A stretch of DNA of 64,000 nucleotides from a virus (taxonomy: Duplodnaviria > Caudoviricetes), in the IMG/VR virus record IMGVR_UViG_3300025000_000055; one strand, 5' to 3'. Shown here one piece after another: positions 16,310 through 58,935 of the stretch. The translations under genes and the position numbers were made by a program. The notes under the pieces are model-generated. The model did no database searches. It was not told the origin of the DNA and was given only the letters and a program-made list of their open reading frames with translations. Numbering within the stretch: position 1 is the stretch's first letter; every line of letters begins with the position of its first letter.

Positions 16310-18936
16310 TTATTGTTCAGTTGAACTATCATCAGGATTTTCTGTTAAAATTTTCTGATATTCTAATTTAGCATCTTCTACAGCTGTATCAAACATCCTC
16401 CAAGGTAACATTGGTAAAATTTCTCTAGTTGCCTTATTCATAATTAAATCTTTAATTTTATTATCCTTATCTGTTGGAGAAGCATTTTCTCCCGATACTA
16501 TTTTAAGCATAAATGCTAGCAATTGATCTGCATTTGAAATTAAATCACTCATATTCATAGTATTTAGTGCTTTAGGTAAATTTAAACTATATACAAATGT
16601 TTCAATTATTTCTTTAGGTATTTCTGTACCAGAAAATTTCATTATTTTTTTATAGAATTCAGTTATATTAGGGTTAAAATCAAGTTGATCACTTACAACT
16701 CTCCCTGTAAATTTGGCATTAGCCATGACAAGAGTCTTTGCATACGGTATATTCACATAGGTCGTTAATCTATGCAGTTCTCTTATGAACTTCCCTAACT
16801 TTCATTAGGATACTAGACTATATCTTCATCTTTTATTAAGTTAATTAATCCTAATAAAAGAGCTCTCCATTTCGATTTAAGGGATTTTCACCCACCTACT
16901 TAGGCCCTACTCCTATTGATCATTTCAGATCCAAAGGGATAGTCGTTGAACTTTATTCCTTATTATATAAGGAATCTTAGCTGCGGATCACCTAATCTTA
17001 AACATTATTACCTTACTCAGGTTAATTACTCCTGACCACTATATCATTGCTAATATAGTTTGGTAGTTTAAGATTTAAAGACTTCCCCGACAATTAAAAG
17101 AGAATTGGTATTATAGATCACTCTATAACCTGACTAATAATTATCAGCTTCATTGATATAATTCATTATTACAGATGGGACACCAGTACCATTAATGTAA
17201 GATGTTTTTAACATCTCCATTAAATCAGTATTTAATTGTATATCCTGACCTGCCAATATATCAAACTCTATTCCTTTTTCACCAGTTCTACCTACAGGTA
17301 CAAAAACACCTTTAGCATGACCAATTTTAGATACCATTGTATTATAATTTAATAAATCCATAAAATTTATATCTCTTTCTTTAAGAGTTCTAGCTACATC
17401 TTGTAATTTATTAATAATATTTGTATCTATACCAGAATTTTTAATATAATTAATTCTAGTATCGTTAGATTTACTAATAATAGAAACCATCTTAAATATT
17501 AAAAGAGCTAAATATAATTTAGCATAAAATAATGACTTCATTAGTATACTAGTTCCTTCACCATCTTCATTTTCATTAACAGTGAATTCAGTTATATAAT
17601 CAACTGGTATAAATTGAAATTTTATTTTCTTTTTATATAGTTCATTATAAGATAAGCAATTGAATATTAATTCTTTAAATTTAATATTTTCTTCTAAGTA
17701 TTTTTTATTAAATGATTTAACGATTTTTTCAGTTAGTTTAGTTAAAAACATATTTTCAAGTTCGGGTGTATTAAGATTAACAGTATTAATTCGTATTGTA
17801 TTAATAAATGGGGATTTACTAATAGGTGAAGCTTCATGTATATAATAGTATCCTATAACATGATCCATTATTTTAACAGGTATGATCTTTTTAGGACTAA
17901 TTAATTTAATAAAACAATCCGTTATATTATCAAAATTATTAGTCTTATCTTTTTCTGTAGATATAGTTGCATCATTAAAAAATGTTGAAAATGAATTAGT
18001 TTTATTTTTAGATTTATTACTATTTTTAATAGCATCTTCAACATCTTTTTTAAATTTTTCATCAGTAATAAGTTCCGATACATCAACACCTTCTAGTATA
18101 GGTATATGTACAATATCATTTTCGACTTCAATATCTTTAACTAAATCTTTTATTTCTTTTTTTAATATTGAGGAAACCGATTTAATTTGCCCGTCATCTT
18201 TTAATTCTCTTATAAAATTATCATCAATATTTTCAGTTATAGAAATTGTTTTTAATTCTCTTACCTTTTTATCATAGAAATTTTCAAATAATTTTGAATA
18301 AGGTACAGTGTAAACATAATATTTACCGTATTGAAGAGTTTTCGGTATAATATGATTTTTCAATTTACTTGATAATTTAAATTTAGTCTCTAAATTTTCT
18401 ATTAATGATATATAACTCTGTTTATCTTCTTCACTACAATTAGAACTTTTAAATTGTAAATTTCTTGATATAGATTGAGTAACATCATCAGCTGTTACTA
18501 TCGCATCTCTAGTTGCATTAACAGCTTCTTCTAGCTCAAATAGATGACTACAAATTAAATCAAGGTCTTCATACAAAAGATTTTGATTTCTATATCTTTC
18601 ATTAAAAAATTGAAATACAGCATTGTCTTCTGATGAAAATATATCTTCAATTTTTTTTATATTTGAAAATTGTTGACTCTCATAATCATTAAATAGTTTT
18701 ACTAGAAAAGTTGATATGTCATCTCCACCAAAATCAGTTAATTTTTTTATCTCCTGAAAAATAACATCATCAACCTGATCTGATAATTTTTTAATTTCTT
18801 TCTCTCTTTTAGTATCACTTGCATTAGTATTAAAAGAAATTTTATCCAATACATCATTAAATAAAGCATTTAATTTTATCAACGGTCTTTCTATTTTTTT
18901 AACAATTACTCTTTTAGTTTGTTTCTCAGCACTCAT
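16310..18936 (-). CDS. Putative portal protein, spliced join(18936..17143,16744..16310), about 742 aa
   Basis: Splicing restores NYINEAD|YAKTL. The portal identity comes from recalled similarity to phiKZ-like portals (RDAIVTAD, IIPKTLQYG) and is not verified. Confidence 0.65.
16745..17142 (-). mobile_element. ORF-less group I intron in the portal gene
   Basis: Same core as the terL intron. P1: exon CUGAU pairs with GUCAG. Ends ...GTGAATATACCG. Confidence 0.93.
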
Positions 18937-19645: not shown

Positions 19646-22117
19646 TTACACTATAATTTTATTAACATAATAATTATTAACATCATTAATATCAATAATT
19701 AGTTTCTTGTTCTTTTTAATATTTAACTTTTCTTTTATAACAGAATCTATTTCTTCTAATTTGGGAAGATTAAAAAAATCATGACCTAAACTATTTAAAT
19801 CACCTATTAACATATTATCTATAAAGATTTTACCTATATCTTCTTTTTTATCTTTATCATCAATATCTTCAATATAATTTGGCAATTCCTTATTATTTTC
19901 TATAATTAATTTACCGATCATGGAATTAGGTTCAATATTAAAACAAATAATAATACTTGGATACATACTGGAAAACGTAATATTCACATAGATCGTTATT
20001 CTATGCAGTTCTCTTATGAACTTCCTTAGCTTTCACTAAGATACTAGACTATATCTTCATCCATTATATAATCGGTATAATGGAGCCTCCTATTTCGATT
20101 TAAGGGATTTTCACCCACCTACTTAGGCCCTACTCCTAATGACCATTTCAGATCCAAAGGGATAGTCGTTGAACTTTATTCCTATAACTAGGAATCTTAG
20201 CTGCGGATTACTCAATCTTTTTATTATAAATAAAAAGCTCTAAGAGCTTCCCCGACAATTAAAGAAGTTATTCAACATACATTACTATATGAGGGAACAA
20301 ATTCATCCATATCAATAACATTGTCAAATATAAATTGACTTTTTTTACCTAAAATTTCAATACCAACATGAGAATTTAATAATGGGTTGGCAACTAAAGC
20401 TCCTGCAAATTTTTCATCTTCATCATCTTCGTTATTCTTGATTGTTTCTACACCATACTGAATATTAATGTTATTAGCTATTATTAACCCTTGCTTATAA
20501 AATTCTATATATGCACGATTTTTTAAAAACGTTAAGTTCACATAGATCATTAGTCTATGCAGTTCTCTTATGAACTTCCCTAAGCTTTCCTTAGGATACC
20601 AGACTATATCATCATCTCATAGAGATGCTTCCTATTTCGATTTAAGGGATTCTCACCCACCTACTTAGGCCCTACTCCTAATGACCATTTCAGATCCAAA
20701 GGGATAGTCGTTGAACTTTATTCCTATAACTAGGAATCTTAGCTGCGGATTACTCAATCTTTTTATTATAAATAAAAAGCTCTAAGAGCTTCCCCGACAA
20801 TTAAAGAAGTTTACAATACATATTACTATGTAAAGGGTCTAATTATTAAACCGTTTGTCTAAATACTTTTTTATAAGTTGTAGCATTAGTATATGAACGT
20901 TGATATACATTATCAATATCATTAACTTTTCTTTCAATACCTAATTGAAGTAAGACGTCTTTAATATTATACATAACAAATTTTTTATAATTTCTATATG
21001 GTAAAGTTTTAATATTACCATCTTCACTATAATCTAATTTAGTATCACTAATTTCTTTTTCTGCAACATAAGTAAGAGCATTAGAACGTAATTCCGAAGC
21101 TCCTTTTCTTAAAGCACTGTATACTATCATTTGATCTAAAAAAACTGTATAAGATGATATTTTAAAATAATCACCTTTATTTGCTACTTTAAAATTTCTC
21201 ATATCTTTTACAAACATTAATTCTTTTATATTAAAATCAGGATGACACATTATTTCTTTTGGATCTAAATTTAACTCTTTCATACGAGCTATTAAATATG
21301 GGACATCAAATCCGATATTCCAAATCATTAAGAAATCACGTTTAAGAGTATTTATTAATTTAAATGTATCTATCAACATTTCACTTTCATCTTCATACAT
21401 ATAAATATTATATTTTAATACCCCATATGATTCATCAAATACTTTATGAAGCTCTTCTACAAAATTATCTATATCTTTTTTAAACTTTTCTATTTGAGGA
21501 TTATTTTCATTTTCTAAAAGAAAAGTAAAACATGTGTTACTAGTTTCATCAATTAAAGTAATTGCATTAACTGGACATTCACCATCTTTAGGAAATCCAA
21601 TTACTTCTATTGAATCAACTTCAATATCAAGATATGTCTTAGTTATAGGTTTAGGTTTATCATTATGATAATTTAATAACCATTGTATTCTATACCAATT
21701 TTCAATATTATAATCTGAACCAAATACATATCTATATTTATGCAAATTATTAATAGCATACCTATTTCTAGTTTCCAACTTTTGTTTAATATAAGTTAAA
21801 TATTCTTCACCTGCTTGTTTAGCTATATAAAAAGGTAAATCTTTATATTTAGTTCGGTGACACTCAGTTTCACTTAAAGGACTAAATGATTTATTATGTT
21901 GAAAATTTCTAAATTCTTCTTTTGTAAAATAAATATCCATCTCAGGTTCATCTATAGTTAATATGTGTTTTTCACCAGTATTTAAATCTTTATAAATAAT
22001 ATCGAGACTATCTTTATACTTTCTTTCTTTATTAGGAAAATGGTAAATTGTTTCTAAAAACATTATGTTATCACTTTTCATCTTTCCAAGAAACTTCATT
22101 CTATAAATCACCACCAA
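19646..22117 (-). CDS. polB: Family-B DNA polymerase N-terminal subunit (exonuclease + motif A), join(22117..20849,20529..20305,19975..19646)
   Basis: ExoI LDIEV, ExoII WNIGFDVPY, ExoIII YNIKDV. Splicing restores RQTV|FLKNRAY and DMD|FSSMYPS. No motifs B or C. Confidence 0.88.
19976..20304 (-). mobile_element. ORF-less group I intron 2 in polB (inside motif A)
   Basis: Family core; ends ...GTGAATATTACG. P1: exon GGAU pairs with GUUC. Confidence 0.93.
20530..20848 (-). mobile_element. ORF-less group I intron 1 in polB
   Basis: Family core; ends ...GTGAACTTAACG. P1: exon GGUU pairs with GACC. Confidence 0.93.
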
Positions 22118-38902: not shown

Positions 38903-41900
38903 TTAAATATCTTCTTCTATACCATTCATTTTAATTTTAATATAAAAAAGATTTGTATTTTCATTCTCTTTCCTTTTAACTTGGAATTTATTATTAATTT
39001 CTCTTATAGTATTAATTCTATCTAAATATTCTTCTTCATTATCATAGTCAATTGAAACAAAACAACTATTAGGTTCATCTTCCTTACAATATTTAAATAA
39101 ATCTTTCTCAAATAAACATTTAAAACTTTCTGGTTCTCTTGAATCATCAAAGAATAAACCATGAGTTTTACAAAAAGGAGTTATAATACCACTAGTGCCT
39201 GGATCTGTTATGTTCACATAGGTCGTTAATCTATGCAGTTCTCTTAAGAACTTCCCTAAGATTTCCCTAGGATACCAGACTATATCATTAACCTAAATTT
39301 ATTAGGTTACTTCCCACTTCGATTTAAGGGATTCTCACCCACCTACTTAGGCCCTACTCCTATTGCTTATTTCAAAGCCAAAAGGGATAGTCGTTGAACT
39401 TTATTGTTATAATTAATAAGTGTAATCTTTTGATATGTGTACCCATGAAGTTCTTTTTCTTAAATGTTTAACCAAACCCCTATAAGATTCATTTTGTTTT
39501 TTGTCTTTAACTATCATATTCATCTCCTTTCTTATCTCATATTCAGAATAACCTTTTTCTAATAAAATACATATCCCACGAATTAATGTTTCTGAATATT
39601 TATTACATCCATGTCTTTCACCTTTAACTGGTTTTTGTAACCCTTCTCTCCATGAATGATCAATATTTTCTTTAGGAGTACTCCATTCTAAATTTTTATA
39701 AAAATTATTAGTTTTATTAGTATCTTTATGATTTATATGAATATATTTTTCATTAAAAAACACTTTTAATGGTAGAAAATAATATCCGACTAATCTATGT
39801 ATATAAAATTTTCTTTGTTTTTTGTATCCTTTTAGCGTACATCTTAAATAACCATCCTTATCAGTAAAAGGACTTAAAAATCTACCAGTTAATTTATTTC
39901 TAACCTTACCATAATTACTAATTTCGTATATATTTTTAACATTATATTCTATAATATCTTTCCATTCTTCTTCATGGGGTTTAATAAATATTATCATTTA
40001 ATACACACCTCTTAACATATAACAATCTTAGCTGCGGATTACTCAATCCTAAAACCTTGTTACCATACCTTAGTTGATTAGACTAAGCCACTATATTGTT
40101 TCCGATATAGTTTGGTAGTTTTAGGCTATAAGAGATTTCCCGACAATTAAAGAAGTTTTCATCATAAGTTACCCTATAATGCTCCAATCCAGTAGAGTTA
40201 CCGCATACGTTAATATCGAGCTTCCCAATGTAAGATGGATGAATATCACGATATTTTTTTGATATCCTATTGTCATTCTTACCACCCAAACTATTCGGAC
40301 CTTTAATAGTATATCTTAGTTTACTAAAAAAATCCATATCATTTATTTTATCCGTTGTGTTCACATTACTCGTCAAATAATGCAGTTCTCTTATGAACTT
40401 CCCTAAGTTTCCCTAGGATACCAGACTATATCTTCATCCTTAATTAAGTTAATTACTCTCATTTAAGGAGCTCCCCGTTTTAACTCACCATTATAGACTT
40501 GTGAGATTACTCTACTTCATATGTTAATTTCTATAACATATTTTTCGATAGTCTTTGAACTTTCACCTTTATATAATTTTTTCCAAGATCTCCCTGATTT
40601 GATATTACTCATTAAAGTATAAAGATTTCTAATTTCCCTTTTTGATAAATTATTTAAACCTAGTTTATCAATTATCTTTTTATGTTTTAATCCTTGTTTC
40701 ATAAACTTAATTATATTTCTTATTAATTCTTCATCATATCTTTTTTGTTTACATTTATTCAAATCAATATTTTCGGTTAAATAAATTCGTGTTCTTTTAG
40801 CTCTTAAATCATTTATAAATGTACGTATATTTTTTTTATTTTCTAAATTTAATTCATAAATTATAATATCAGTACTTTTATTTTCTTGTAATAAAGATAC
40901 TATTTGTTTAGATAATTTATCCGAGAATTTACTTAAAGGATGTTTTTCTCCAATAGGTTTATTTCCTTCCTTATATGAATACGCAATATTTTCTTTCTGA
41001 GTACATTTTTCTAAAAGATCTAATTTATTAAATTTATTTATACTATCTTTATGATGAATTATCATTGATTTATCAGATATATTAAAATCTGACATAAAAT
41101 AATAAGCTAATAATCTATGAATTAAAAAATTTCTAAATTTACCATCTATACATGATAATTGAATATATTCGTATTCTTTAGTATTTTTAGAATTTTTTAA
41201 AATCCTATTAAATTTATCATTTCTAATAAATCCATCAGAATTTATAGAATAATTCTTTTTAACTTGGGGCAAATCTATTTTTACCCAATCTTCTTTTTTC
41301 ATATCTTTCTCTTTTCTTTATATAATTTTTATTTTTCTTGGAAAATATATCTTTATAAAGGTTATTAGCTGCGGATTGTCCAATCCTTACTGTTATTACT
41401 ATACCAGGTTAATTACTCCTGCCACTATAATATCACTATTATAGATTAGTAAGTAAGGCCCTAAGGAGTTCCCCGACAATTAAAGAAGATTCTTTACAAT
41501 ATTACTACTGTAAAGGACAGTATCTATCAAATCTTAATAATCCTGAATCATGTAAATTCTGAATTAGCATATCTCCAGGAAATTTAAATATTTCTTCAAT
41601 ATTTTCTAAAGTCATTTTTTTACCTAAACTAATAACTCTATTCATTCTTTTACTAAATGCTTTAGTTAATAAAGAAGCAATATATTCATTACATCTTAAT
41701 CTTTTATTATCTATAGACATATTATCTTTCTTTCTTAATTCATCAAAATTTTGAATCATCCATCTGATAACAGAATAAACATTCTTTCGATGTTCATAAT
41801 CTATCTTTAATATATTCTTAGTTGTTTCATCTATTAATCTATCAAAGAAGATTAAAGTATTTAATCCTTTCTCATAGTAGTTATAAGCCATAGTAGCACT

Positions 41901-48035: not shown

Positions 48036-50922
48036 TCATACTTTAATATCAATAACGAACATTTCTTCTTTAATTCTTCGTCTCTCAACTTCTTCATCTA
48101 AAAGTTTTTCGAAATCTTTTGTAGTACCAACAAATACTTTATTTTCCTTATATTCATTAATAATGTCTATTCGTCTTTTAATATCTTTAAATTCTTCATT
48201 ATTACTTATAAAGAATTTTCCATCATAAAATTTACCTTCAAGAAACCCAGTATTAATATCTATATCAAATAATTCATTATTAAATTCAATTTTTAAACCC
48301 ATAGATTTCAAAAAGGCTCCTAATATTTCAATATTTCTATTTTTAAAATTTGGTTTATATTTAAAATCTTTTATAGGGTTTAATCTTGTCATTAAATTTT
48401 CACCTAAATTACGTCTACCTATAACAGATGACCTATAAAATAAATGTAGTTGAGCTATTAGTTCAGTTGGAACACCTATATTAGTATTAAGATTTTCATC
48501 AATACCAATTCTTATAGGAGTCTTAGAATATAATTCCTGATGAGTTTTAGCCTTATTAGATTTTTCAGGTAAACCTTTTCTAGATAAAGTTCCAGTTGAT
48601 CTAGCTGAAAAACCTTTCTTAGCTGTTTGCATTAATTTCATTACATACATATCACCAACTACTAACTTTTTCATCATTTTAATTTTCCTACCAAATCTAT
48701 TTGTATAAACATCATATTGTTCAATCCAATCATGTTCTTCATATAATTGAATAAGTTTATCAAATAAAAATTCTTCTTCCCATAAAGGAGGTATATGAAT
48801 AAATACACCTTCTTCAACTAAATTATTAAAAAATTCTTCTTTACTAATAACACTTAATCTCTTTAAATATTGTCTTAATTTTTCTTCTTGGTCTTTATTA
48901 AAATAACTTATTATATTAAGAAATAAATCTTCCTTTTCTTTTATGTCAGTCATTGTTTGAATACGTTCTACAGTTCTATTACAAATAAAAGTAATTGATT
49001 GTTCAAAAAGCTGGTATGAGTTTACAATTGTTTTAGACCATATCTTCATCTCAAATGAGATGCCTCCCGTTTCGGGTTTCCCCTACTCTACTTACTTCTT
49101 CAGTTATAAGTAAATTATAACCTATGCTTTCGATGGTCGTTGAGCATATTTCAAATATTAATATTTGAAACTTCGCTGCGGATTATTCAATCTTAAACCT
49201 TTTTACCATACCTGAGTAATTACTTCAGCCCTTATCTATATGTCACCATGATAAGTTGGTAGATTAAGATTAGCGAACTTTCCCGCAATTAGAGAGGTTT
49301 TAAATCGCCTAAACCTTACCAGTCCAGCGATTGATCACAGATAAACTGTTAAACAGAAGGTCTACACGTTCTCCAGTTTCTAAAAATGGCATCTCATCAT
49401 CAGGTAATATCTTTGATATAACACCTTTGTTACCATATCTCGTTGTATTCACATAGAACGTTAATCTATGCAGTTCTCTCATGAACTTCCCTAGTTTTCA
49501 CTAAGATACTAGACTATATCATTAACCTAAATAAATTAGGTTACTTCCTATTTCGATTTAAGGGATTCTCACCCACCTACTTAGGCCCTACTCCTATTGT
49601 ACATTGCAGTACCTAAGGGATAGTCGTTGAACTTTATTCCTTATATAAGGAATCTTAGCTGCGGATTACTCAATCTTTTAATAATATAAATATTATTAAA
49701 AGCTCTAAGAGCCTCCCCGACAATTAAAGAAGTTTTCTATATATGTCACCACATATAGGGGCTAAGCTATGTAACCCGTTACTTTCTGACCCACTTCTAA
49801 ATAGGCATCTTTTTCAACTAAAAATTCTATTACTATATTGGAAAATACTGAGTTATTTTCTTCTCTCCATTTATATTTTTCGTCTAATATATTTTTTGCT
49901 TTTCTCATATAAAAACTTATTTCTCTAGAATATTTAGAACCAGAATCAATTATCTGTTTACATCTTTTAAATATTCTTTCATAATAAACTAATTGCATTT
50001 TATAATATTTCATTATCTGTCTATTAAAATCATTCTCTTCCAATTCATCTAAAGTTTTATTACAATATATATCTATATCAATAATTTTACCTTTACCTTC
50101 AATAAAGAATAATACATCAGAAGTAAAATCAATCTTTCTAAGATTAGATTTCTTTAAATCATATAATAATTGATTATTATGAATTCTCCTCTTAGCACAA
50201 ATTATTTTATCCTTAACATATTCGTTTATATCAGGAAATGTCTTATAATTATTACCATTCCCATATATATTACAAAAGATATCATTATCATTTAATGAAA
50301 CTTTAACTCTCTCAACTTCTGTTGAAACCATTCTTCTTGATAATGATTCTGAACATACAATAGCATCTTCAATAGTATTATTCTCTAAAAGATACATAAA
50401 CTTAACATTAGCACCATAACAATAATTCATATCTTCATCATAAGAAGAACTCTTATAAAGAACTTCTCCTTTATATATTGAAGTCCCAACTTCTTTATTA
50501 TCAATATTATCAGTATTATATTTGAAACCATATCTTTCTGTTAAATCTTCAACGTTTTTCTTTTCTATAATATCATATTGGTCATTTTCTTTATCATATA
50601 TGAATAATAAATATATTTGTTCTTCATTTTCACCATCTGTAAACTTACTAATTTTATCAATAATAACACAATCATTTTTAACTTTTTTATAACCAGTTGA
50701 ATTCTTACCAACTATATTTTCATAATTAGTAAAAATTCTTGGAAATTCGGGATTATTTAGAGTAACACATTGCTTCAAGTGAGCTGTAAACATAATATTT
50801 CTTGATGAACTAATATAACCTGGATTTGTTAAAAGAGTCATCCCAAATATATCATCTTTACCTTTAAACTCCTTTTCTTTTTCTTGTAATATTTCTTTCA
50901 ATGACATTGTAGTTTTATACAA
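48036..50922 (-). CDS. rpoB: Phage RNA polymerase beta-like C-terminal subunit (probably non-virion), join(50922..49774,49440..49326,49024..48036), about 750 aa
   Basis: Splicing restores KVTG|RYGNKGV (GRHGNKG motif) and INRL|NSYQLFE (SRMN.GQ..E motif; phase-1 junction T|TA). VGDMYVMKL...ARSTG follows. Confidence 0.9.
49025..49325 (-). mobile_element. Divergent ORF-less group I intron, apparently lacking P9
   Basis: AATTGCGGG, AATCCGCAGC, CTCAACGACCA, AAGATATGGTCT. P1: exon AAUCGCU pairs with GGCGAUU. Only 10 nt separate P7 from the terminal G. Confidence 0.85.
49441..49773 (-). mobile_element. ORF-less family group I intron in the beta-C gene
   Basis: P1: exon GGGU pairs with GCCC; ends GTGAATACAACG. 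Confidence 0.93.
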
Positions 50923-51013: not shown

Positions 51014-52970
51014 TTATATAGCTTTTTGAAATTGTTTTTCTTGTGATTTTTCTAACCTATCACATAATTCAAAAATATTTAATAATTGACCATTTTCTTC
51101 TGGTTCAACATGCGATAGTTGTTTTTCTAATATAGGTAATGACCTATTAAATAATTCGTATCTTAATTTTTCATTAGTAAGAAATTCTTTTCTAAATTTT
51201 CTACTATCAAATTTAATATCTTTTACACCTTCAATATATTTATAAGGATTACGACCAGCAATTAATTCATTATCTTCAGCAAATCTTAGTTGAGTTAAAA
51301 TAGGGTCAAAACCAGTGGATTGGTCATAAATAAGATTTACAAATTGACCAGCTTTATTTGTTCTAGATTTTAGAAACTCAGCTCTTACACCAAATCCATC
51401 AAAACCATTTTCTTCTTTCTTAAATTTTTCTGAACCTAAAGCTATAAAATTAACTAATAAATTAGCATAATAGATCGATTTATTCACATTGGTTGTCAGT
51501 CAATGCAGTTCTCTTATGAACTTCCCTAATTTTCATTAGGATACTAGACTATATCTTCATCCTTAATAAATTTTATTAAGGAGTTACCCATTTCGTAAAG
51601 AACTCTGAAAAGTTCACCTCACCATTATTGACTTGTGAGTCTACTCCTACTTTACTTTTATTAAAAGTAACGTCATCAGATAGTCGTTGAACTTTATTCC
51701 TTATTAATTAATTAAGGAATCTTAGCTGCGGATTACTCAATCTTTTTATTATATAATAAAAAGCTCTAAGAGCTTCCCCGACAATTAAAGTAATGCTAAC
51801 ATAATATTACTATTATGCCACCCTAAATTTAGGTGCATTCCCACCCGTTAAGTTCACATAGTTCGTCAAACTATGCAGTTCTCTTATGAACTTCCCTAAG
51901 CTTTCCTTAGGATACCAGACTATATCATTAACCTAATAAGAATTATTAGGTTACTTCCTATTTCGATTTAAGGGAATTTCACCCACCTACTTAGGCCCTA
52001 CTCCTATTGATCATTTCAGATCCAATGGGATAGTCGTTGAACTTTATTCCTTATTAATTAATAATAAGGAATCTTAGCTGCGGATTACTCAATCTCTTAA
52101 TAATATTAATGTATTAAAAGCTCTAAGAGCTTCCCCGACAATTAAAGAAGTTATTCAACATACATTACTGTATGAGGCCCCACAAATCTCGAGTTTAGGG
52201 ATACTCTGATCCATCTTCATATATAATAATTGTGGTTGCGTTTTATGCATAGGGTTAATTTCAATTTTTTGATTAATATGATTTATAGCAATAACATTTA
52301 TGTTATAGGCTTTTATAATTGGCATTAGTCTCTTATAAAATTGGGCCAAAGCTTTAGCAACTCTGTTAGCATAAGTCCCACCTTCCATTTCATTAGAAGC
52401 ATCTTTTGAAGCAACAGTTGGAATTGAATCTATAATCATAACTGTTGGAACAAAGGTTTTAATGGGTCTATTAAATTCATCAACTAATCCTGTATCATAA
52501 GTATAATCTTTTCTATTAACTTCTTTCTCTTGAGCTATTTCAACTATACTATTAAATATATCTTCAATATAATTTTTTTCTTGTTTCAATAAATATTTAT
52601 CATCAAGTTCTTGCTGAGTCATAGATGTTACATTTTTTATTCTGGTATAAGATAATACTTGTTCTAAGTCGTAATGTTGAACAAATGCATTATCAACAAA
52701 TTTTCTAACAATATTGGCTGCAATTTGAATAGCAAAAGTAGTTTTAGCAGTACCAGCCTTACCTATAATTGTCATAAACGTACCACCAACTATACCAATA
52801 GAAGAATAAGTAGTTATAAGTTTCTCATCTAAATCTCTAACTTCCACCATATACCCATTTCTATAATCAAATGGTACAAAACCTGTTGGATAACAAATGG
52901 ATGTTTGTGTTGGACTAAATAAACCCTTTTTATCTTTTTCTCTTAATCTTGAGAGCATTTTATTAGCCAT
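51014..52970 (-). CDS. recA: RecA/UvsX-like recombinase, join(52970..52197,51845..51831,51475..51014), about 416 aa
   Basis: Walker A GKAGTAKT, Walker B IIDS, INHI. Splicing restores QSIP|GGNAP|IYYA (RecA TPGG.ALKFYA). Confidence 0.88.
51476..51830 (-). mobile_element. ORF-less group I intron 2 in recA
   Basis: P1: exon CACCU pairs with GGGUG; ends GTGAATAAATCG. Confidence 0.92.
51846..52196 (-). mobile_element. ORF-less group I intron 1 in recA
   Basis: P1: exon CCCU pairs with GGGG; ends GTGAACTTAACG. Confidence 0.92.
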
Positions 52971-57225: not shown

Positions 57226-58935
57226 TTATTTTAAAGATTTTTTAACTAGTAAACCCTTTGTAACTAAGTCACTATTTATACCCATACTCGTCAAATGCAC
57301 ATCAATTAAATTTAATGTTACTTTATTTTCAACATTATTAGTCAAACTATTTAGAGAAACAAATCCTTTTTGTGCTATAGATGCATACATTTCATTCTTC
57401 ATAACCATATCATCGGCTCTCGGCGATAAGTTCATATTGTTCGTTAGACAATACAGTTCTCTTATGAACTTCCCTAGGGTTTCCCTAGGATACCAGACTA
57501 TATCACTAACCTAAAAATATTAGGTTACTTCCTATTTCGATTTAAGGGATTCTCACCCACTCACTTGAGCCCTACTCCTATTGCTTATTTCAAAGCCTAA
57601 AGGGATAGTCGTTGAACTTTATTCTTATTTTTTAATCATAATTTTATATTTTTTCGAAATATGACCCCATTTACCATATTTTATACCATCTATTAAACTA
57701 TAAAAACTATTATTGTTCTTTCTTTTTTTATAACCATATATATGCATTATTTGCATTTGAGTAAGCCCCTTCTCAAGATATTCGCATATTTCAGTAACTA
57801 ACGCTTCTGAATATTTAGCATAATAATTTAAACTACCATTACAACCAAATCTACTTTTACCATGAATTAAACTAAAGTCATTATTTTCTTTAGTTGTAAC
57901 CCATTCAAGATTTTCGTAATAATTATTAAATGAACATGTATCTTTATGATTCACATTGATTATACATTGTTCTTTATTATAACCATTAATAAATTCCCAA
58001 GCAACAAGTCTATGTATTGCAACATTTTTAATTTCTTTATTTTCACCCATTAATCTTAAATGTAAATATCCTTTTTTATCATGAAAACATTTTAAAAATC
58101 TATCAGTTTTTATATTTTTTATTTTACCATAGTTACTTATTAAATAAGTATTCTTTTTAATAGATGGATATGTAATATTTCGAAAAATTTCTTTATCTTT
58201 TTTAATAACTATATACATTTTTTATCATCCTTTTAAAATAAATTAAAAAAATGTATAATAAGATATTAAAAAATAATATAACTTATAAATAAGAATCTTA
58301 GCTGCGGATTACTCAATCTTTTTATTTATATAAATAAAAAGCTCTAAGAGCTTCCCCGACAATTAAAGAAGTTTTCTATATATGTTACCAATATATAGGG
58401 GCTAAGCTATGTAACCCATTAGCTCTCTTAGTGCATCATTGGCTCCAACAGATAATAATGAAAAGTTTTCTTGATCTGATTCTCTAGCGTTTTTATCTTC
58501 ACCAACGACCTGACCAGTCATTGCAGAACGACTTGAACTTTTTGTTGATAAAGTATTTTTTTTACTCAATAATTGTTGCATTCTTTTAATATGAACATAA
58601 CCAACAGGTACTTCGTATTTAGTAACAACGGGATTATCAATATTATTATTAACAAAAGGTACTACTATTTTTTCGAATAAAGGTATATCTAATACTTTAG
58701 CCGCTTTTTCTATATTGTCAATATTTAAATCTCTCTCATAATCAACCATATCTAAAATAAGATATTGGTCATCATCTTTAAAAAATTCTTTAAAAAAAAT
58801 ATCGAATTGTTTATCACTCATTGGTTGAAATAGTTCTTTATATTTTTTAGTGTTTATACTTGTTGGGTCTAAAGCATCAAACGTATCATAAATTAGTTTT
58901 TCCATCTTTTTTCTTTTATTTTTAATAAGATTCAT
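57226..58935 (-). CDS. rpoB: Second RNA polymerase beta C-terminal fragment (probably virion RNAP), join(58935..58414,57423..57226), about 239 aa
   Basis: VGYVHIKRMQQ...RESDQENFSL...ALRELMG|PRADD aligns by eye with the bacterial beta C-terminus GEME..AL...TVKSDD. Confidence 0.8.
57424..58413 (-). mobile_element. Family group I intron with HNH ORF
   Basis: 5' end TACATAGCTTAGCCCC is identical to that of the 49441-49773 intron; ends ATGAACTTATCG. Confidence 0.92.
57625..58218 (-). CDS. Intron-encoded NUMOD4/HNH homing endonuclease
   Basis: YLISNYG, IHRLVAWEF, VNHKD..NN..ENLEW. Confidence 0.9.
   Translation of the reverse strand: MYIVIKKDKEIFRNITYPSIKKNTYLISNYGKIKNIKTDRFLKCFHDKKGYLHLRLMGENKEIKNVAIHRLVAWEFINGYNKEQCIINVNHKDTCSFNNYYENLEWVTTKENNDFSLIHGKSRFGCNGSLNYYAKYSEALVTEICEYLEKGLTQMQIMHIYGYKKRKNNNSFYSLIDGIKYGKWGHISKKYKIMIKK

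Follow-up and report, generated by a model that had tools for sequence, protein, structure and literature searches.

A recombinase-like gene in three exons

On the minus strand of the window (the whole stretch of viral DNA that was analysed, 64 kb from an uncultured AR9/PBS1-like jumbo phage of a groundwater metagenome), a UvsX/RecA-like recombinase gene is laid out as three exons separated by two introns. Exon 1 (52197-52970, minus strand), as given by the list of open reading frames and its translation, comprises 258 codons, includes the Walker A motif GKAGTAKT and closes with the codons GAT CAG AGT ATC CCT, which specify DQSIP. It is followed, on the same strand, by intron 1 (51846-52196), which is 351 nt long, holds no ORF of its own, has an in-frame stop at 14 codons and ends in a terminal G at 51846. 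Next comes a micro-exon of 15 nt (51831-51845, minus strand) with the sequence GGTGGGAATGCACCT, whose codons GGT GGG AAT GCA CCT specify GGNAP. Intron 2 (51476-51830, minus strand), 355 nt long and likewise without an ORF, has an in-frame stop at 6 codons and a terminal G at 51476, and leads into exon 3 (51014-51475, minus strand), the 153 codons of which begin ATC TAT TAT GCT (IYYANLL...) and run to the stop at 51014. Read by codons at the junctions, both introns are phase 0, and the expected splice junctions are CCT-GGTGGGAATGCACCT-ATC, with exon 1 ending in ATC CCT, the micro-exon in GCA CCT and exon 3 starting with ATC TAT.

Exon 1 matches the UvsX-like recombinase family PHROG 97 (E 8e-26), the C-terminal part of which is matched by exon 3 (E 1.4e-5); the Pfam RecA model, run on exon 1 alone, scores 19.9, under its cut-off of 27. 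An intronless homologue from a metagenomic relative (L007) matches structures of E. coli RecA with E 2e-15 and that of T4 UvsX (3IO5) with E 1e-4. On the basis of the Walker A motif and this homology, the gene product is predicted to be a recombinase of the RecA/UvsX family. The nearest isolated relatives found by tblastn are AR9/PBS1-like jumbo phages of Bacillus, Staphylococcus and Listeria, and a megablast search against isolated phages returned no match. The recombinase gene is uninterrupted in AR9, PBS1, BpSp, Madawaska and LPJP1, and the gene for the beta subunit of the non-virion RNA polymerase lies downstream of it both in the isolated relatives and in the window (49762-50922, identified by PHROG). 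For annotation the arrangement matters in a practical way: gene callers split the recombinase into two or three pieces and miss the five-codon exon altogether.

When the three exons are joined they encode a protein of 416 aa, which aligns without a gap across the junctions with the recombinases of AR9, BpSp, Madawaska and LPJP1, the spliced window protein reading ...QSIPGGNAPIYYANLL... where AR9 reads ...ESIPGGTSCIYLANTL... in the alignment over both junctions. Uninterrupted homologues read SIPGGNAPIYYA at the place where the window has its micro-exon, and exactly GGNAP is present in the closest uninterrupted metagenomic relatives (L007, L010 and L018), with the identity of uninterrupted metagenomic relatives that have GGNAP lying at 57-79%. 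The 5' splice site of a group I intron needs a U at position -1, and the 3' splice site needs a G. A single in-frame combination provides both, so that the exon boundaries are unambiguous. The preliminary description had proposed a 15-nt coding exon between two group I introns in a recA-like gene, and this is confirmed by the gap-free spliced protein together with the Rfam matches given below; the exon-intron anatomy is far beyond chance. That both upstream exons end in CCU and that both introns are phase 0 was likewise read correctly from the sequence. The shared CCU arises because both exons end on a proline codon (P-GGNAP-I) and a U is required at -1; in the intronless relatives both prolines are encoded by CCA.

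The alignment also supports the proposal that the exon encodes a conserved GG segment of loop L2, here placed at the junction of loop L2 and helix G, since its GGNA falls on the GGNA of RecA: PGGNAPIYYA of an intronless relative aligns with TGGNALKFYA of E. coli RecA. Glycines G211/G212 of RecA and G209/G210 of T4 UvsX touch the DNA backbone (PMC10144138), and mutations in the segment of RecA that holds these glycines abolish function (PMC3164682); by this alignment, the micro-exon would therefore encode two glycines that contact the DNA backbone. As a separate observation, one uninterrupted lineage (L009/L024) has PCGHAA in place of PGGNAP in its recombinase, which shows that not every member of the family keeps the motif's first glycine.

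Both introns score above the gathering score of 50 bits set for the group I model, Rfam RF00028: intron 1 reaches 73.4 bits (E 9.6e-17, match 52206-51894) and intron 2 reaches 62.0 bits (E 2.6e-13, match 51841-51524), the second match beginning within the micro-exon because P1 takes in the last exon bases before the splice site. In P1 of intron 1 the exon sequence CCCU is paired with the guide GGGG (52181-52178), and in P1 of intron 2 the last 5 nt of the micro-exon, CACCU, are paired with the guide GGGUG (51823-51819). The terminal G residues of the two introns are the sole positions that restore the frame. The predicted P10 is negligible in both introns, at -2.3 kcal/mol for intron 1, whose partner would be the start of the micro-exon, and +1.6 kcal/mol for intron 2, against -9.3 kcal/mol for an intron with a real P10 in the relative L014. 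P10 is dispensable in many group I introns. A weak P10 thus does not bar membership of the group, to which both introns belong by their predicted core, P1 and terminal G. A twintron was considered and rejected: the introns lie side by side, each is complete, and they are split by coding sequence that is needed in the homologues.

Sister phages, related introns and an insertion hot spot

Two sister phages in IMG/VR (L005 and L006) carry the same two introns and an identical micro-exon. Their exon 1 protein is 94% identical to that of the window, and all three exons are open, at 93-95% protein identity. The two introns of L005 score 68.3 and 67.9 bits with RF00028 and intron 2 of L006 scores 60.8, which places three of the four sister introns above the cut-off and leaves intron 1 of L006 below it. 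P1 of this last intron reads ACCU/GGGU in place of the CCCU/GGGG of the window (exon position -4 changed from C to A, guide from G to U), and this compensatory change in exon and guide supports P1 of intron 1; it also means that both upstream exons of L006 end in ACCU. Over the 3' part, the orthologues of intron 2 are 96% (L006) and 87% (L005) identical to it. The double-intron state is confined to a single protein cluster at 90% identity, consisting of the window protein, L005, L006 and one further variant. Elsewhere in the L005 genome (177368-178145, which corresponds to L034:769-1545) there is a further pair of group I introns with a gap of about 20 nt (at most 26) between them, apparently within an RNA polymerase beta gene.

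The recombinase introns have many relatives close by. A 21-nt motif of the intron tail has 10 matches in the window against 0 expected, and this motif together with a profile search identifies at least 10 introns of one family in the 64 kb, the recombinase pair included. The others found by motif or profile lie at 8422-9448 on the plus strand and at 16745-17155, 19976-20310, 20530-20850, 39207-40199, 40353-41560 and 57424-58396 on the minus strand, and a further copy sits in the next gene downstream of the recombinase, that for RNA polymerase beta (49441-49760, minus strand; nhmmer E 2.7e-73). The RF00028 gathering score is reached by only 3 of 10 family introns in the window. Three of the four long family introns carry NUMOD4 ORFs, two of which also match HNH_3 just under the Pfam cut-off; the ORF of the fourth (8831-9247) had no Pfam match. 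In its 3' part, intron 1 shares 84-91% identity with most other copies in the window and just 72% with intron 2, and tandem duplication of one intron is ruled out on the grounds that intron 1 is nearer to most of these copies than to its neighbour.

In the contigs of the source metagenome the summed depth across the intron stretches (51476-52196) is about 5-30 times that of the flanking exons, as would be expected if the community holds many intron copies that are nearly identical. The contigs of many relatives end inside an intron, which indicates that such introns break assemblies. The DNA contigs of the source study are fragmentary. In two strain variants they run from exon 1 into intron 1 and from intron 2 into exon 3; none shows an intronless joint, and the joints listed connect paralogous intron copies and are uninformative.

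A protein search with the exon 1 ORF returned 164 relatives, and the best 120 clusters were used for a census of interruptions. Of these clusters 88 extend over the full length; the other 32 terminate between residues 240 and 269, and their C-termini place the break after INP in 5 clusters, after DESL in about 9, after PG or PGG in 5, after the proline that ends exon 1 in the window (site 1) in 9 and after GGNAP (site 2) in 3. About 26 of these best 120 clusters break inside the seven codons L-P-G-G-N-A-P, and there are at least four insertion points within 21 nt, plus the one after INP some 18 codons upstream. Individual contigs document the alleles. In two of them (L039 and L043) an intron occupies site 1 only and GGNAP... 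follows directly after it, the intron holding a NUMOD4/HNH gene in L043 and an ORF in L039; in another (L037) an intron with an HNH gene occupies site 2 only; in L040 the intron lies between GG and NAP; and L014 has another HNH-bearing intron, with a NUMOD4/HNH ORF, 4 nt upstream of site 1. Viral contigs were scanned with an exact pattern, which used the intron start found in the window, for an allele holding intron 2 only; there was no match.

At L014:4786-6026 the intron guide forms 14 contiguous pairs with the ligated exons GAGUCCCU-UCCAGG, and guide and protein alignment together would place the 3' splice site after an A (...CCUACA), not after a G; splicing at a canonical G that lies 9 nt upstream is the other candidate and would lengthen the protein by the three residues YLH. 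At L039:3254-3300 the site-1 intron follows a CCC proline codon, so that a C would be paired with G at the 5' splice site, not the usual U.G.

Origin of the micro-exon, splicing order and exon skipping

The reading that we favour, to which we give a probability of roughly 80%, is that two ORF-less group I ribozymes occupy two neighbouring sites of the hot spot and splice independently, the 15-nt exon being the remainder between them. The hot spot and its single-site alleles suggest how this came about, the micro-exon being what remains once two sites are filled. Two ribozymes of one phage-wide family would have filled adjacent homing sites within the P-GGNAP-I codons, probably arriving by homing and losing their endonuclease genes later; such genes are absent from both introns in the double-occupied clade. 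With its own guide and its own terminal G each intron would splice alone, and presumably with good efficiency, and full splicing would restore the normal recombinase of 416 aa. We would expect no obligatory order of splicing, and exon skipping as at most a minor side reaction that gives an inactive protein.

The alternative that survives best, although we regard it as unlikely, is an obligatory order, under which the two ribozymes could not share the 15-nt exon at once and one intron would have to leave before the other folds. The active sites are indeed just 15 nt apart, and intron 1 is transcribed first. Steric clash, competition from a GGUG/CACC hairpin within the micro-exon and long-range pairing with intron 1 are the causes that could be proposed. 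The preliminary description had gone further and held that the exon must serve both ribozymes and thereby imposes an order, a claim that we find unsupported: only intron 2 pairs with the micro-exon, and it does so over 5 nt. Its P1 takes up nt 11-15 and the P10 of intron 1 is negligible, so the ribozymes use exon ends that do not overlap; these ends would be used independently, and no order is forced by the sequence. Tight spacing is moreover tolerated elsewhere, as in the 23-nt and 41-nt internal exons of phage Twort. A kinetic order may exist.

Two pairings within the precursor bear on this question. The micro-exon hairpin (-5.6 kcal/mol) and P1 of intron 2 (-6.8 kcal/mol) have about the same stability, which would favour competition; as a special feature of this locus the hairpin was rejected, since GGUG and CACC result from the Gly-Gly and Ala-Pro codons and the hairpin is also found in some intronless relatives. 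The second pairing emerged from a thermodynamic fold of the whole precursor, in which 51972-51995 (the P7.1/P7.2 region of intron 1) pairs on the minus strand with 51822-51842 (the micro-exon and the start of intron 2) over about 19 bp and engages the 5' splice site of intron 2, the pair probabilities being close to 0.9. Its energy is -24.2 kcal/mol, and 1 of 500 shuffles was as good. The same fold does not show the native P1 helices, and for whole group I introns a minimum-energy fold is not a reliable guide. In principle the pairing could act as a kinetic trap and so create an order. It is probably fortuitous, to judge from the copies of the family, in which the intron 1 element is kept beside unrelated exons, and from the sister phages. 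Between the window and L005/L006 the local hairpin of the element covaries (CCU/AGG to CUC/GAG), and the cross-pairing drops to -17.7 and -20.4 kcal/mol in L005/L006, uncompensated by the invariant micro-exon.

Exon skipping was the second proposal of the preliminary description, and its arithmetic is correct: with 15 nt and two phase 0 introns, loss of the micro-exon keeps the frame. For pairing with the end of exon 1, the calculated energy is -5.6 kcal/mol with the guide of intron 2 and -5.3 kcal/mol with the cognate guide of intron 1; the two are about equally good, so that ribozyme 2 could occasionally join exon 1 to exon 3. Alternative splicing is in this sense mechanistically possible, and skipping is perhaps not negligible. 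A route through a chimeric ribozyme, with its 5' half from intron 1 and its 3' half from intron 2, is disfavoured, since the P3 strands of such a hybrid are mismatched and their pairing is worth only -1.2 kcal/mol compared with -6.4 kcal/mol.

It is a much larger step, and one that we consider very improbable, to regulated alternative splicing, in which splicing from the 5' site of intron 1 to the 3' site of intron 2 would deliberately yield an in-frame isoform without GGNAP, for example a filament-poisoning or otherwise regulatory recombinase. The 15-nt length, the phase of both introns and the cross-recognition by guide 2 fit such a scheme, as do the two ACCU ends of the 5' exons in L006, and skipping between similar group I introns has been reported for orf142 of Twort (reviewed in PMC3073962). 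Against it, the lost residues include two glycines that contact single-stranded DNA in RecA and UvsX (PMC10144138), the P3 of a chimeric ribozyme is poor, double occupancy of the hot spot explains the layout without any function, alleles with a single occupied site have nothing to skip, and the arrangement is limited to one 90% protein cluster. The absence of the DNA-contacting glycines makes a side reaction likelier than a regulated isoform, and a protein lacking GGNAP would most likely be inactive. Slimmer still are the chances of the full proposition that some transcripts join exon 1 to exon 3 and that the resulting recombinase polymerises without the DNA-gripping GGNAP. If that were true, the product would be an intrinsic modulator, or a poison, of recombinase filaments, in an amount governed by the folding of both ribozymes, and a virus would regulate at the level of protein by means of competing group I ribozymes.

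Least probable of all is a decaying gene, with dead relics for introns and a recombinase pseudogene in this clade, as could be suspected from two introns without an endonuclease gene; both ribozyme cores score like other copies of the family, P1 is preserved by compensatory change, three exons remain open at 93-95% protein identity across the sister phages, and the micro-exon codes exactly for the residues of intronless relatives.

Comparison with known systems

Double occupancy of the recombinase hot spot provides a clean natural case of two predicted self-splicing ribozymes separated by 15 bases, within the DNA-binding motif that is the most conserved in a recombinase; the same seven codons are interrupted in roughly a fifth of the related genes. 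The locus could serve as a test bed for the limits to packing of group I ribozymes, for splice-site cross-recognition versus skipping, and for the way in which endonucleases share or compete for overlapping targets.

Group I mini-exons are known from fungal cox1. In organelles a 'mini-exon' of 1 nt lies between two group II introns (PMC12308204). These cases resemble the present one in having a very short exon between adjacent self-splicing introns, and differ in that the organellar introns are often protein-assisted and, in the example just cited, belong to another intron class.

Group I introns in recA itself have been described in the Bacillus cereus/anthracis group and in phage 0305phi8-36, and according to PMC2504315 they too are self-splicing introns in a gene of the RecA family whose endonuclease gene is mostly lost, with phage introns as the likely source. 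As presented there they comprise one intron at one site, unlike the two introns 15 nt apart in the UvsX-like gene of a jumbo phage. For nrdE of the B. cereus group the same source gives four intron sites, with different introns at several close positions of a conserved coding segment in different strains; this resembles the recombinase hot spot, except that nrdE has one intron per strain in that account, whereas the recombinase packs at least four sites into 21 nt, two of them filled together.

The AR9/PBS1 and MarsHill-like jumbo phages, a lineage to which the window is tied both by the homology of its recombinase and by the synteny of that gene with the one for non-virion RNA polymerase beta, are described as intron-rich in bioRxiv 10.1101/2020.12.14.422802 and PMC12350094, with many essential genes split by group I introns, often with HNH-type endonuclease genes. 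The recombinase is absent from the intron-bearing genes listed for AR9 and the MarsHill group.

The closest parallel is orf142 of phage Twort, which has three group I introns and for which exon skipping has been reported (Landthaler and Shub 1999, as cited in PMC3073962). From its record (AF132670) and a K-like homologue we derived exons of 345, 41, 23 and 20 nt; the ending GCAU is common to exons 2 and 3. In both genes several related ORF-less group I introns adjoin within a short stretch of a phage gene and leave tiny internal exons, and in both the successive 5' exons share an ending, GCAU in Twort and CCU here, as skipping requires. The exon here is 15 nt long and lies in a recombinase, whereas those of Twort lie in a tail tube gene; its loss would keep the frame, which loss of the 41- or 23-nt exon of Twort would not; and skipping has been reported for Twort, whereas here it is a prediction from sequence. 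Since Twort orf142 had already established tiny internal exons and skipping between side-by-side group I introns of phages, the recombinase locus brings no new mechanism and stays conceptually within that system and the known intron hot spots; what is new is the host gene in this lineage, the size of the exon, the fact that its loss would keep the frame, and how densely the hot spot is packed.
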